DNA of 64,000 nucleotides from Podospora anserina (lineage: Eukaryota), in contig CM030332.1 in NCBI GenBank assembly GCA_017654855.1, positions 7,564,001 through 7,628,000 on the forward strand, given 5' to 3'. The notes under the pieces are model-generated. The model was not told where the DNA came from and did not search any database. It was given only the letters and a program-made list of their open reading frames with translations. Position 1 is the first letter of the stretch. Every line of letters starts with the position of its first letter. Positions 22,010-26,379 of this stretch are shown here, one piece after another. A program made the position numbers and the translations under genes.

Positions 22010-22310
22010 TTTTTATTTATTTATTTTTTTATTTTTTTATATTTTTTATTTTTTTATTTTATATTTATTTATTTTTTATTTATTTATTTTTGATTTATTT
22101 ATTTTCTATTTATTTATTTTCTATTTATTGATTTTTTTATTTTTTTATTTTTTATTTATTTTTTTTATTTTTTATTTTTTATTTTTTATTTTTTATTTTT
22201 TATTTTTTATTTTTTATTTTTTATTTTTTATTTTTTATTTTTTATTTTTTATTTATTTGTTTATTTTTTATCTGTTTTTTTTATTTGTTTTTTTTTTATT
22301 TTTAACTTTT
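22010..22310. repeat. ~300 bp (TTTTTTA/TTTA)n low-complexity tract
   Basis: Almost pure T/A sequence with a recurring 7-mer. Confidence 0.95.
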
Positions 22311-23157
22311 TCCCATGCTTCCCCTGACAGATTAGGCATAGCACCCAGAGAAGCCCGAATACCTACGGCCGGATGGACATTCACTGCATGAAATCGCGCC
22401 GGACGGGGGAAGAAATCGAGCGGCGCCCCTTCCCTCGCCATGCAGCAGCCCACGCATTCCAGCCAGGTTTCCAGGTGGCGATGCAACTCTCAAGCTTTTC
22501 GCATGTACATGATCACATCGGGGGGAAAGAGGGGGTGGAGGTCATGCTCTGTCTCAGAATAATTGTAGGGCGCCGCGGAGGGGCAGGGGACAGGGGATGA
22601 GGGGAGGGGAAAAGGTTGACGCCACAGGACCGCATTTGATGCCAGGCATGTGATTTGGGGAGGAGGGAGACGTGTGAGTGGGGAGGGGAGCTGTGTTTTG
22701 TGGAATTGTGCTGATGGGATGGAGTGGCATAGCATAATTTGTGCCTGCTGCTGGGTGATGTGAATCAGGGGTTCAAGGGGGTGCCAAGACTTGAGGTCTT
22801 GGATGAAGCCATCACGAGATGTAATAATAACGGCAGCATGACAGGCGCTCACCTCCTCGAGATCTGGAGCACAGGGAAGAATTGGGACCGAGGCCTTGAA
22901 AAACAGCTGTAGCAAACGAATGTTCATGGTCAATTGATGCTATGTTGCCTGCCTTGCACCTTGCCAGCTCCAGGCAGGACAACCTCGGGCGAGGTTGAGT
23001 AACAACCATCGTACTCCAAATACCGATCAGCTCCCTCCCTTTCTCATATGTGCTCATCATCCTCATTATGTGCCCATCGTCCCCATTTGTGCTCACCACG
23101 CCATCTTCGCCTCTGTTCTCAACTCGCACCCACACAGACAATGGTTGTCAGTCCCTT

Positions 23158-25726
23158 TTAAAAGAACTTGCCCTTCGTCTTCGCAATGCCTGGCGCATCC
23201 GAAGAATCATCAGCAATGGCCTCATCCCTCAACACACCACTATCAACATGCTGAGTATCGCCAACAAGCTGCTGCTGGCCACCATCCACCACAAACGGCT
23301 TGTCCAACGCATCAAACCTAACCCCCTTTCTCTTCGCACTGAAGTACTGGATGCTCAATCTCAGCCCCAGCGCCCCAAAGCCCCAGAGAATACCTCCAAC
23401 AGGGGCAGCAACAAAAGCCCCAAAGCATCCCCAATCACCGGTAAACAGACCCTGCTGCAACAGCAACAGTTCGGCACCCTTCTGCGCGTCCTGGTAGTAC
23501 ACCAATCCGAAAAGGAAAACAGTGAACAAGCCTCCCAGTCCGCCAACAACCACCTCGAACCCTCTCCAGAAGTAAAACTTCTCCGACAAGCCCAGGCACA
23601 AGACCGGGATTGTCGCCGCAGAGACAAGATCCGTGATGAGGTAAATCTGCAGAATCGACGGCGCCCTGATGGCAATAACCACGACCGGCACCATGATCAC
23701 CACCACACCGGCCCTGATCCACCAAATATTCAGCCTGTTCCTGAACAAATCGTTGCTCGCCGACGTGACCATGGCAGTCTGGAAAGAGTCGAAGGCAGCA
23801 GTGCTCAGCGTGACAGACATGACAATGACGATCCCCACCACCCAGTTGGGAAGCTGCTGTAGCAGCGCAAAAAACGCAATGCCGCCGTCGACTGGGTTCT
23901 CGAGGTCATCGCCGGGGACCAGGCCAGCCCAGACGGCGACCAGGCCAGTGCAGCCGACTAGCACGAAGATGACGAGGATAGCGACGACGGCAAGGGAGAT
24001 GCCCGTCCAGAGATCACGGTCAGTTTTGGAGGCGAAGGTGCGGAGCCAGAAGTGGGACTATGGTAGAAAGATCAGATGAAGTTAGCTATTGTTCGCTGAT
24101 GTCGCTGAAGACCCAAGAAATGCCAAGATGTATGGTTGTTCACTGAGCGGTCCTTCCATGATCTTGACCCATTCTTTTACTGGTGAATTGGCATTTTGAA
24201 ACAAACAGTGGGACAACGAAGAGACAGCAGCCAAAGGACAGATGCGACTGATGCACCTACCAGGAAGAAGCTATTGGTCAACAGAGCAACAGGCAGGATA
24301 TACACCAGCTGCCACCCCAAGAGATTGCCCTTGAGCAGCCCAGACTCTTCAATCAGACTTGTGTCAATCTTGGTCTCGACACCGATGGAGATGGTTGCAA
24401 TAACAACCAAGGCCATGACCATGGTTCCCTGGATGTTGTCGGTGAAGAACGAGATCTTGAAGCCGCCCAGCGCTACACACCACCATATCGTCAGCCAGTG
24501 CATCTTCCTTTCGTCGGCGCCAACACTTACAGGTGTAGATGGTGGTGATGATGCACTCCACAATCAAGACCGGCAACCCATCAATCCCCGCCAGCATATT
24601 CACCACCTGTCCCACAGCGCTCAACTCCGAAACCATGTACAGGAACAGCGTTACCAGCGTCATAAAACTCAGGAACAACGCCGCCGCATCTCCGTACCGC
24701 TGCCTCGTCCACTCCGTCAAGACGAATCCCTGCGGGCACTTCTTCCTGATGATCGGGCCGAGCCACGCAAAGGCAAACAGAGGCAGCGCAGAGCTTAGAG
24801 CGTAGACAATAACACCTTGGACGCCGGAAATAGTCGCCAGTTGAGGGTAGGCAAAGAGGATGGCCGAACCGAGCGCTACAAATCTTTGTTTTAGTACAAC
24901 GCAGCAGGGGTGATGGGGAGGAAGGAAGGGTAGAAATTTTGGATAGCGGCAGCACGTTCCCCACGCAAGCATTATCTTGATCGAGTTATTACGGTACAAT
25001 CTCAGCTTCGTCTTTCATCGTACCATCGCCCCGTTGAAGGGGAATGGCACAAGGTCCGACTCGGCGCCCGTAGTGAGCCGCAGTCCTTTCTTACTTCCTG
25101 ATCTCCATGACTTGGCACTAATTAGGGGGAAGACTCCCCCAGGGCAACCATTTGCCAAGAGAAAAGGAGTGGCAAGAAAGAACTTGGTGAGTTTGGGTTT
25201 TTTTGAACGAACCTAATCAGCTGCCTCCGAGGGCTTGTGATGCTGTGTGTCGACCTCATCATGTCCCCCAGGATTGCCGTATTCGCTTGCTGCGGCGTTG
25301 TATTTCTGAGGCTGTCGTCTCAATGATGCTGGATTCGTGTTTTTGGCTGCCGCTGCCATTATTCTCTTTCTGTTCCTGCTTGTCCGCTGTTCACTCACCA
25401 GAAGCGATAAAGTTCAAGGCGAGCGGGACGGCTGCTGAAATGTTAGTCTCCAACCTCACTGTGACTTCAAACAGGGCGACAGAGAAAAGAATGAAAAGCG
25501 GAAAGAAAAAAAAACTCTACCAGTCTGCGTCCGGCTGCCGGCCAAGAATTCGCCCTTGGACTGGTTTCTGAATGTCCAGGCGACGCCTGTGCCGATGATA
25601 CTGATGGACTGTCAGTTTTTGACTGTACGGTACGTGACGGCTTGGGCGACTAAGAAGAACAGACAGGAAAAGCCCATATGTCACATAGACAAGGGCGTGA
25701 GACGCCTCCCAGGATGGCTGTCCCAT
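23158..25726 (-). CDS. Sodium:solute symporter-family (DUR3/urea-transporter-like) permease, likely for thiamine or a precursor; Neurospora NCU01977-type; multi-exon
   Basis: MGQPSWEASHALVYVTYG, AVPLALNFIAS-ALGSAILFAYPQLATI, KCPQGFVLTEWTRQRYG, LGGFKISFFTDNIQG, SHFWLRTFASKTD; intronic TPP aptamer. Confidence 0.88.
24946..25080 (-). ncRNA. TPP riboswitch aptamer within intron 25398-24876
   Basis: Minus strand reads CGGCTCAC-TACGG-GCGCC...GCTGAGATTGTA-CCGTA-ATAACTCGATCAAGATAATGCTTGCGTGGGGAAC-GTGCTGCCG. This gives the CUGAGA loop, P2 TACGG/CCGTA, GAUC..AUAAUGC..GCG core and P1 closure. Confidence 0.93.
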
Positions 25727-26379
25727 GGTGATGGTGGAGGTGATGCTATGATCTTGTTCTCGAGATGGGTGTGTCGTGGATGAAGTGGCGAAGAAAGTTT
25801 ACCCTTTCGTCTGTCCAGTATCAAAGTCAAATTCAACTCTCCGCGCGGAACACTGACTGAGGATCTCTCTTATACATACTGTCTTGATGGAGCAAGAGAT
25901 GAAAATTCCCCAAGCTCCTCGTGATGTGAAAAATCCCACGCTTTTAGCAGAGATTATTGCTTCCTCACAGCGCCGGTGCCGGTGTTCAATTCTGCCAGCC
26001 TTTCCACAGTCGGATTGGTTTCGTGTGTCAACAAGCTCCAAGCCACTTGGTTCCATCTTCTCCTCGGGAAAGAATGGCCCTCTCAACATTTTCTCTCATC
26101 CCCGGTTCGCCGGTTCGTGGGGGTCTTCCCGCCATCTTTTCCAAGTGTCTCTAACACTTGTCAGTGTATATTCACATGCTAATCTGTTAGCAGAGCAACG
26201 CAGTAGGTAATCGCTAAGTGATGCCAAGCCTGCAACCCGCCAGCCCCACTGCGACGCCCAGGCTTGTCACACCTGCAAGCGAACATGCTTGACAGCTGAG
26301 AGCCGGGAAATCCCTTCGGTAGCCGAGCAAATCAACGAGCATCTGTAAGCATAGCAACAATGCTCGTAAAGATAACAAA

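Follow-up and report, generated by a model that had tools for sequence, protein, structure and literature searches.

The gene NCU01977 of Neurospora crassa carries a TPP riboswitch, which controls the choice of splice sites by long-distance RNA pairing (Li & Breaker 2013, PMC3597705); the species alignments in that work show 17 species, and regulation of this kind has been named 'Type II' by Mukherjee et al. 2018 (PMC5882874). The DUR31 genes of Candida parapsilosis and C. albicans, described by Donovan et al. 2018 (PMC5997356), belong to clade V and, like the gene analyzed here, to the Dur31/NCU01977 orthologous group. They share with it an intronic TPP riboswitch, differing by their budding-yeast intron architecture; in Candida, splicing is regulated by thiamin, and thiamin transport has been shown. 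Fungal NMT1 and THI4 (Cheah et al. 2007, as reported in PMC3597705 and PMC5997356) feature the same class of aptamer, and high TPP also leads to non-productive mRNA. In those cases, however, the host genes serve biosynthesis and the riboswitch lies in an intron of the 5' UTR, the strands of P4-P5 masking a nearby donor.

The locus described here was found within a stretch of 64,000 nucleotides, hereafter the window. All its features lie on the minus strand, and positions are those of the window. It very probably represents a gene for a thiamin transporter of the sodium:solute symporter family, the NCU01977/DUR31 orthologue of a Sordariales-like fungus, carrying the published Type II TPP riboswitch. 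The system is already known, and was rightly recognised in a preliminary description of this DNA, where one element was misplaced; both the reading as a thiamin transporter and the NCU01977-type mechanism are in print (PMC3597705, PMC5997356).

The host gene

The gene model was established by using RNA contigs from four runs. A 69-nt intron of the 5' UTR (25811..25879, GTATGT..CAG; joint 25810->25880, four of four runs) precedes the coding part of exon 1 (25665..25726, ATG at 25726..25724), which is delimited by contig joints. Intron 1 (25601..25664, 64 nt, GTCTGT..CAG; joint 25600->25665) and intron 2 (25432..25520, 89 nt, GTAGAG..CAG; joint 25431->25521), both found in all four runs, flank exon 2 (25521..25600), defined by contigs and spliced model. 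Exon 3 (25399..25431) is 33 nt long and ends with the codons for PLALNFIAS plus a G; relatives have kept this peptide, together with the G|GT that comes after it. Past the riboswitch intron, exon 4 (24531..24875, RNA contigs) shows 77% identity to residues 60-173 of NCU01977. It is followed by an intron of 58 nt (24473..24530), by exon 5 (24261..24472, RNA contigs and spliced model) and by an intron of 203 nt (24058..24260), the joints of both introns being present in four of four runs. The last coding exon, including the stop codon, corresponds to 23158..24057 and is 65% identical to residues 245-536 of NCU01977.

The spliced model yields an uninterrupted reading frame of 543 aa, whose product can be aligned with its homologues along the whole length. 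Identity is 80.1% to homologue P0001; to the N. crassa protein P0121, it is 70.9% in an alignment of 543 columns. P0121 in turn agrees with NCU01977 as printed in the supplement of PMC3597705. By sequence comparison, the host gene is the orthologue of N. crassa NCU01977 and Candida DUR31, and its intron interrupts the same codon as in NCU01977 (NFIAS|ALGS). When exon 4 alone was compared with the SSF family (PF00474), a match with an E-value of 9.4e-4 and 18.6 bits was obtained, the cut-off being 22.8; two other exons gave no match, and most full-length homologues carry a precomputed PF00474 match.

Proteins of the NCU01977/DUR31 type carry the label 'urea transporter' in databases. The preliminary description had favoured thiamine or a precursor as substrate, rather than urea, and the orthology agrees with this proposal, as Dur31, the orthologue of NCU01977, has been shown to transport thiamin (PMC5997356). 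By analogy, the host gene most likely encodes a transporter for thiamin and not for urea; the name to be used in annotation would be that of a riboswitch-controlled thiamin transporter of the Dur31/NCU01977 type, in place of 'urea transporter'.

The riboswitch intron and its aptamer

When the distal donor S1 is used, the riboswitch intron spans 24876..25398 (523 nt, GTGAGT...TAG); its N. crassa counterpart is different in length, with 684 nt. The same intron, with GTGAGT at 25398 as productive donor, had been proposed earlier, and the borders 25398..24876 were confirmed: only the S1 junction produces the peptide NFIAS-A-LGS, which is found in 25 homologues and in NCU01977. The S1 donor (25393..25398) overlaps with a TGA at 25393..25391, which is an in-frame stop in unspliced RNA, and its context, GGTGAGTGA, is also present, TGA included, in the N. 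crassa sequence given in the supplement text. An in-frame stop is located 3-54 nt past S1 in 47 of 47 orthologous introns. The junction between S1 and the acceptor was not seen in the RNA contigs of any of the four runs (contigs drop rare variants).

An alternative donor, AG|GTTCGT, is located at 25207..25214, with its GT at 25212..25211, and equals S3 of N. crassa, where ATAG|GTTCGT is found at nt 495, corresponding to S1+249. The preliminary description had listed it as a candidate; it was placed correctly and is used in vivo, since the joint 24875->25213, linking donor 25212 to acceptor 24876, was found in contigs from four runs of four studies. In the spliced model, the resulting isoform stops after 60 aa. 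The intron is also retained, as shown by a contig covering 24849..25242 unspliced. The contigs lack five other GT..AG introns, and therefore represent transcripts. A downstream 5' splice site whose use brings a premature stop is thus present, as in Type II switches. According to the contigs of the four runs, from which rare variants are dropped, the transcript commonly formed in the laboratory is the non-productive one.

A further candidate donor, AA|GTAAGA, had been indicated at 25094. The motif is there (GTAAGA, 25089..25094), 13 nt before P1 and in the position of N. crassa S4, and no joint at this site was found in the RNA contigs of the four runs. The probable branch site, TACTAAA (24890..24896), corresponds, in the alignment, to a CT[AG]A[CT] block found in relatives.

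The TPP aptamer, the presence of which is established, occupies 24940..25081 and contains a 57-nt insert in P3; P3 itself is shorter than in the closest relatives. In a search of 901 nt, it matched RF00059 along all 105 model positions (1-105), with 43.1 bits and an E-value of 5.9e-7; the match, spanning 25081..24940, bears out the full minus-strand aptamer previously described at 24946-25080. As to the check by the Rfam TPP covariance model, which had been suggested there, the match is full-length and its score is below the RF00059 gathering score of 54.3 bits, so that a scan of the whole window with Rfam at the gathering score gave no match. When 20 orthologous loci were searched, 11 were matched at E<=1e-3, with scores between 38.1 and 49.1 bits, none of them reaching 54.3. 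All of the 11 detected orthologous aptamers being below threshold, the low score is a trait of a subfamily with a long P3 insert and without P3a. The gathering score of RF00059 misses this whole subfamily, as it is reached by none of the 12 matched aptamers (the one in the window and those from 11 of the 20 relatives' loci).

Helices P1, P2, P4 and P5 are present, together with the conserved CUGAGA and P4-P5 loop segments; two non-standard pairs are found in the match, both within P1. Among 35 orthologous aptamers, every one has standard P4-P5 pairs, and hardly any variation is found in the core. RNAalifold, run on these 35 sequences, recovered P4-P5 alone, with one compensatory pair; covariation says little, because the aptamer is too conserved. 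The 5' strand of the extended P1, GCGGC-U-CAC (25073..25081), is conserved in relatives. As in NCU01977, the aptamer is located at the 3' end of the intron, 64 nt from the acceptor, and its 25-nt 5' segment, TGCGGCTCACTACGGGCGCCGAGTC, is identical to that found in the N. crassa sequence (PMC3597705 supplement). Among 80 metagenome loci holding exon 4, the aptamer was found just upstream of this exon in 68.

The long-range pairing partner of P1

The 3' strand of P1, GUGCUGCCGCU (24945..24955), corresponds to the alpha' element and may pair either with the 5' strand of P1, with a duplex energy of -18.9 kcal/mol, or with alpha. The alpha element is located at 25344..25359; its core, AGCGGCAGC (25354..25346, intron positions 45-53), is the perfect 9-bp complement of 24953..24945. 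The alpha-alpha' duplex reaches -21.3 to -21.8 kcal/mol, ranking first among the scanned upstream positions, and both elements are paired with each other in the minimum free energy (MFE) fold of a 582-nt piece of pre-mRNA. As in NCU01977, alpha pairs with the 3' shoulder of P1, is less than 60 nt from S1 and fits the published consensus RGCGGYRRY; the segment 25359..25344 aligns with the alpha of relatives.

The significance of the pairing was evaluated by shuffling. When the upstream intron was shuffled 2000 times, an exact 9-mer complement arose in 3 cases, and the duplex energy was reached, within the first 120 nt, by 2 of 200 shuffles; no significance was obtained in a looser test, in which the alpha' region was taken as 27 nt (39 of 300). 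The same analysis was extended to relatives: in 34 of 43 distinct introns, at most 10 of 200 shuffles attained the energy of the alpha-alpha' duplex, which was no better than shuffles in the other 9. Owing to the internal repeats of GCAGCGGCAGC, the MAFFT alignment of whole introns displaces the alpha elements of two clades by 3 nt; pair counts were therefore made from anchored positions. The flank positions covary, 394 of 600 cells being paired versus 366.6 +/- 9.0 with permuted partners, a value reached in 2 of 1000 permutations. Complementarity and conservation of alpha and alpha' are thus established.

Some details differ from the N. crassa system. Alpha is GGCAGCGGCAGCC here and GATCAGAGCGGTAGCAA in N. 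crassa, and the 9 continuous pairs of the window, followed by a C.A mismatch and then by a G.U and a G-C pair, compare with at least 11 continuous pairs kept by nearly all species (PMC3597705). The distance from alpha' to the acceptor is 68 nt (24945 to 24876), as compared to a published distance that is 'commonly' below 60 nt (PMC3597705). The alpha and alpha' strings of the window gave no match in the searchable files of the Li & Breaker supplements, where species alignments are provided as figures.

The preliminary description had assigned the pairing with the P1 3' strand to AGCGG(A)CA(A)GCA, ten nt past S1. The motif AGCGGACAAGCA (25388..25377) is indeed present, as is its proposed complement TGCTGCCGCT (24954..24945); it may form 10 pairs with two bulges, and has AGCGG in common with alpha, so that it could serve as a weak second copy. 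Its duplex with alpha', however, reaches -15.4 kcal/mol and ranks sixth among the scanned upstream positions, while the MFE fold takes 25354..25346. The motif also misfits RGCGGYRRY, having an A at a Y position, and has no aligned counterpart in 15 related introns, in which the stretch from S1 to alpha is not conserved. It is therefore very improbable that the same mechanism operates through this motif: the true partner of alpha' is 25354..25346, located 34 nt deeper in the intron.

Proposed control of splicing and conservation of the alternative donor

Apart from this element, the control of 5' splice-site choice by distant pairing of the P1 3' strand, as in NCU01977, had been correctly anticipated, in agreement with the aptamer, the orthology of the host and the alpha-alpha' complementarity. 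The steps described below, at both low and high TPP, are modelled on the Neurospora work. At low TPP, alpha' (24955..24945) would form a duplex with alpha, located at 25354..25346 and thus 45 nt inside the intron. A segment of about 390 nt, which contains the downstream donors, would be looped out and S1 (25398) brought near the acceptor (24876), leading to the use of S1 and to the 543-aa transporter. At high TPP, the ligand-bound aptamer would keep alpha' within P1, preventing the formation of the loop; AG|GUUCGU (25212), a donor that is weak but conserved, would then be spliced instead, unless the intron is retained. In either case, the TGA (25393..25391) would remain in the RNA and terminate the product after 60 aa.

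A mechanism of the NMT1/THI4 type, in which an alternative donor close by is masked by the P4-P5 strands as long as TPP is absent and becomes free upon ligand binding, appears very unlikely here. A GTAAGA donor does occur in the window, 13 nt before P1, and Li and Breaker consider P4-P5 masking as a possible minor route for S4 of N. crassa (PMC3597705). The duplex between the GTAAGA region and P4-P5, however, has an energy of -6.4 kcal/mol, a value attained in 230 of 300 shuffles, and the contigs contain no joint at 25094. For the GTTCGT region, the energies of pairing with P4-P5, the 5' strand of P1/P2 and alpha' were reached by 127, 49 and 44 of 300 shuffles, respectively. All together, neither of the two donor regions (25212 and 25094) exceeds shuffles in its pairing with these segments or with the pyrimidine tract, and P4-P5 pairing of the NMT1/THI4 kind has no support in the window.

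It is also very unlikely that the aptamer is a relic and alternative splicing is constitutive, without ligand control: the four RNA runs contain non-productive forms only (contigs drop rare variants) and the aptamer scores below the Rfam threshold, but so do all the detected orthologous aptamers (11 of 11, 38-49 bits). In addition, a response to thiamin is known for the orthologues in N. crassa (PMC3597705) and C. parapsilosis (PMC5997356), and introns that cannot otherwise be aligned have conserved the aptamer core, alpha, alpha' and the donor block.

With the NCU01977-type mechanism as the preferred reading, the sole point going beyond the literature covered is the near-invariance of AG|GTTCGT. 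The 8-mer was found in 44 of 47 orthologous introns, versus 64 of 9400 shuffles, and its conservation is not mentioned in the portions of PMC3597705 and PMC5997356 that were covered. Rather than one of a set of interchangeable cryptic sites, the weak AG|GUUCGU(A) (25214..25207) may, tentatively, be regarded as a sequence-specific element that selection has maintained in the expression platform throughout Pezizomycotina. One possibility is that it serves as a dedicated 'decoy' among 5' splice sites, its weakness being preserved to let it prevail only in the absence of the alpha-alpha' loop; alternatively, it could be bound by some partner.

For annotation purposes, 25398 and 24876 are the borders to be given to the riboswitch intron. 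Several publicly available models of homologous genes run on into this intron.

The riboswitch intron and its gene

The minus-strand intron at 25398..24876 carries a published regulatory system, which the preliminary description had recognised correctly, with one element misassigned; the riboswitch intron is ordinary for a Pezizomycotina genome. By sequence inspection, the distal donor (S1) boundary reads ...ATCGCTTCTG|GTGAGTGAACAGCGGACAAGCAGG... at 25398, and the acceptor boundary ...TTTGTAG|CGCTCGG... at 24876.

RNA contigs from 4 runs of 4 studies, mapped on 22900..26300, omit six minus-strand stretches with GT..AG ends, and are therefore transcripts. Five of the stretches are ordinary introns, supported by contigs of the 4 runs (25879..25811, 25664..25601, 25520..25432, 24530..24473 and 24260..24058). 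Removal of these introns, together with the S1 junction 25399|24875, gives a coding sequence of 1632 nt for 543 aa, without internal stop. Aligned end to end, this model matches the homologous protein P0001 at 80.1% and the N. crassa protein P0121, a member of the P0016 cluster, at 70.9%. Since the 'NCU01977 gene' sequence found in the Li & Breaker supplement (PMC3597705) codes for GTGVAWTMRNQSKGDFLAGNRTQT and AIPLALNFIAS of P0121, the window's gene is, judged by sequence, the NCU01977 orthologue. For the last exon, the closest matches come from Chaetomiaceae and other Sordariales (proteins of 73-77% identity), nearly all labelled 'urea transporter' or 'hypothetical'.

The junction NFIAS|ALGS is kept in 25 aligned homologues. 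Public models P0002, P0004, P0005 and P0016 have extra residues right after NFIAS (alignment A1, columns 108-170), exactly at this junction, and therefore read into the riboswitch intron. A 398-aa N. crassa 'variant' (P0123), starting at an internal Met, is also annotated. The transcript contigs are followed, about 700 nt beyond their 3' end, by a T-rich tandem array (22010..22311; about 43 copies of TTTTTAT, or a 15-nt unit).

An Rfam scan of the entire window at gathering threshold gave no match. When 24700..25600 was scanned by E-value, the TPP model RF00059 was found at 25081..24940, minus strand (model positions 1-105, 43.1 bits, E 5.9e-7), as the only clear match, all others having E >= 0.7. 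The aptamer, intron ends and motif coordinates of the preliminary description are borne out by inspection and by this covariance-model match, though the latter is below the gathering score of 54.3. P3 carries a 57-nt insert, and the small P3a hairpin is absent. Aptamer decay is not indicated by the low score: 11 of 20 orthologous loci match at E <= 1e-3, all with 38.1-49.1 bits (the other 9 are not listed), and the core is near-invariant across 35 sequences. The gathering score misses this subfamily, window and matched relatives alike.

A purine-rich stretch (25106..25083, minus strand), including the GTAAGA donor, lies directly before P1, and a pyrimidine-rich tract (24943..24900, minus strand) follows alpha', the 3' strand of P1; the two could extend P1. 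In the whole-intron alignment, relatives have similar stretches at the corresponding places, resembling GGGAGG and CCCCTCC. The duplex between the two stretches in the window was within shuffles (71/300).

Pairing between alpha and alpha'

Li & Breaker (2013, PMC3597705) describe an element alpha, of consensus RGCGGYRRY and commonly less than 60 nt from S1, whose pairing partner, alpha', is the 3' shoulder of P1; in their account S1 use falls at high thiamin, and S2-S4 are alternative donors whose products contain stop codons. Mukherjee et al. (2018, PMC5882874) present the same 'Type II' scheme across fungi for the family of urea transporters, and DUR31, the NCU01977 orthologue, encodes a thiamin transporter (Donovan et al. 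2018, PMC5997356). Both the long-distance pairing mechanism of the preliminary description and its suggestion of thiamine or a precursor as substrate were therefore already published. The kind of system stands as that scheme (PMC3597705, PMC5882874), but the partner element does not, alpha being at 25354..25346.

The alpha' region was scanned for duplexes with 20-nt windows from 25450 to 25085. The top duplex was formed by 25358..25339 (-21.8 kcal/mol), while the site proposed earlier (25389..25370) ranked sixth (-15.4 kcal/mol). Alpha, AGCGGCAGC (25354..25346), is the exact reverse complement of GCUGCCGCU (24953..24945), and such a 9-mer complement occurred in 3/2000 dinucleotide shuffles of the upstream intron. 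At intron positions 45-53, it fits the published RGCGGYRRY rule of the NCU01977 riboswitch. The motif proposed earlier, AGCGGACAA, was rejected as alpha, since it has A at a Y position. When the first 112 nt of 16 introns were aligned locally, ATAATGGCAGCGGCAGCC of the window aligned with the alpha of the others, and no conservation was found along the stretch of the earlier motif. By rank and energy, conservation and consensus, the partner is thus alpha.

Duplex energies against alpha' were -21.3 for alpha, -18.9 for the P1 5' strand and -15.4 for the earlier site. In the MFE fold of the 582-nt piece 25431..24850, the nine alpha-alpha' positions are paired, with three further pairs on each side. 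Best-energy shuffling against a 27-nt alpha' region including a G run was not significant (39/300); when alpha' was shortened to 16 nt and the search confined to the intron's first 120 nt, the observed -21.5 was reached in 2/200 shuffles. NMT1-type masking of the donors by P4-P5 is not supported, since duplexes of the donor regions (25212, 25094) with P4-P5, the P1/P2 5' strand, alpha' and the pyrimidine tract were all within shuffle range.

Metagenome contigs were scanned using an alignment led by exon 4 (24875..24531), which returned 80 loci. An aptamer lies just upstream of exon 4 in 68 of them (nhmmer, window's aptamer as query); eight of the 12 others have less than 80 nt upstream, and four (L024, L028, L053, L074) have 365-763 nt with the look of spliced transcripts. 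A PLALNFIAS-like peptide is followed by G|GT in 54 loci, and by GC in one more (L059). The best alpha' partner in nearly all these loci lies 19-124 nt into the intron, with core [AGU]GCGG[CU][AG]G[CU].

Anchoring on GCGG/CCGC left 40 distinct alpha/alpha' pairs (L031, L032 and L075, lacking the anchor, were excluded). Core pairs are kept in 34-40 of the 40, and at each position of the alpha 5' flank 3-6 types of standard pair occur. Paired cells were 394/600, versus 366.6 +/- 9.0 with permuted partners, a value reached by 2/1000 permutations, relatedness ignored. The duplex was reached by at most 10/200 shuffles in 34 of 43 distinct introns, and lay above this limit in nine (L031, L032, L033, L036, L042, L050, L071, L075, L080). 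One clade (L031, L032, L033, L036, L079, L080) has S1 donor GTTAGT, with an in-frame TAG, alpha' GUGU(C/U)UGCCGC and weak duplexes, no better than shuffles except in L079 (7/200); in L032 the CCGC core of alpha' is gone.

The S3-type donor at 25212

The one small addition is the conservation of an S3-type donor. The sixth RNA-contig joint, 24875->25213, skips 337 nt with GT..AG ends in 4/4 runs (short side 27 letters), so that 25212, listed earlier as a candidate donor, is used. An unspliced 394-nt contig (24849..25242) is also present in 4/4 runs. Neither the 25399-to-24875 joint nor one at 25094 was among the contigs of the 4 runs; contigs drop rare variants, and their result is therefore evidence of presence only. 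In the 25212 isoform, 186 nt are retained and the reading frame closes after 60 aa, at a TGA overlapping S1.

Beyond S1, alpha, aptamer, branch site and acceptor, the whole-intron alignment of 47 sequences contains one near-invariant block, AGGTTCGTA. The 8-mer AGGTTCGT occurs once each in 44/47 introns, always between alpha and aptamer (exceptions: L029, L067 with GGTTTAT, L075), and in 64/9400 shuffled introns. The AG|GTTCGT(A) donor (25214..25207, minus strand; alignment A3, columns about 463-472) is near-invariant within otherwise unalignable orthologous introns. It is a poor match to the usual fungal donor consensus.

The N. crassa supplement sequence (PMC3597705) contains ATAG|GTTCGT, with the G at nt 495; because S1 is at 246 and product III is 249 nt longer than product I, this donor is S3, the counterpart of AG|GTTCGT at 25212. 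Single S2 or S3 mutations left regulation unchanged (Li & Breaker, PMC3597705). Conservation of the donor is not mentioned in the Results or Discussion of that paper, nor addressed by any title or abstract found.

Exon 4 is joined at ...TCTTCAG| in L053, where the genomic locus L052 reads ...TCTTCAG|GTTCGT, at ...GATCGTAG| in L028, and four nt before the conserved donor block in L024. These three and L074 resemble spliced transcripts, with S1, stop and alpha kept and exon 4 joined from the conserved downstream donor; they look like the non-productive isoform in environmental samples. L059 is a transcript-like contig, with other introns removed and the remainder of the riboswitch intron kept. 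It lacks a 46-nt piece from S1 to just before alpha (L059:190-240 vs L054:1990-2045), which looks like splicing of S1 to a cryptic acceptor, or else a genomic deletion.
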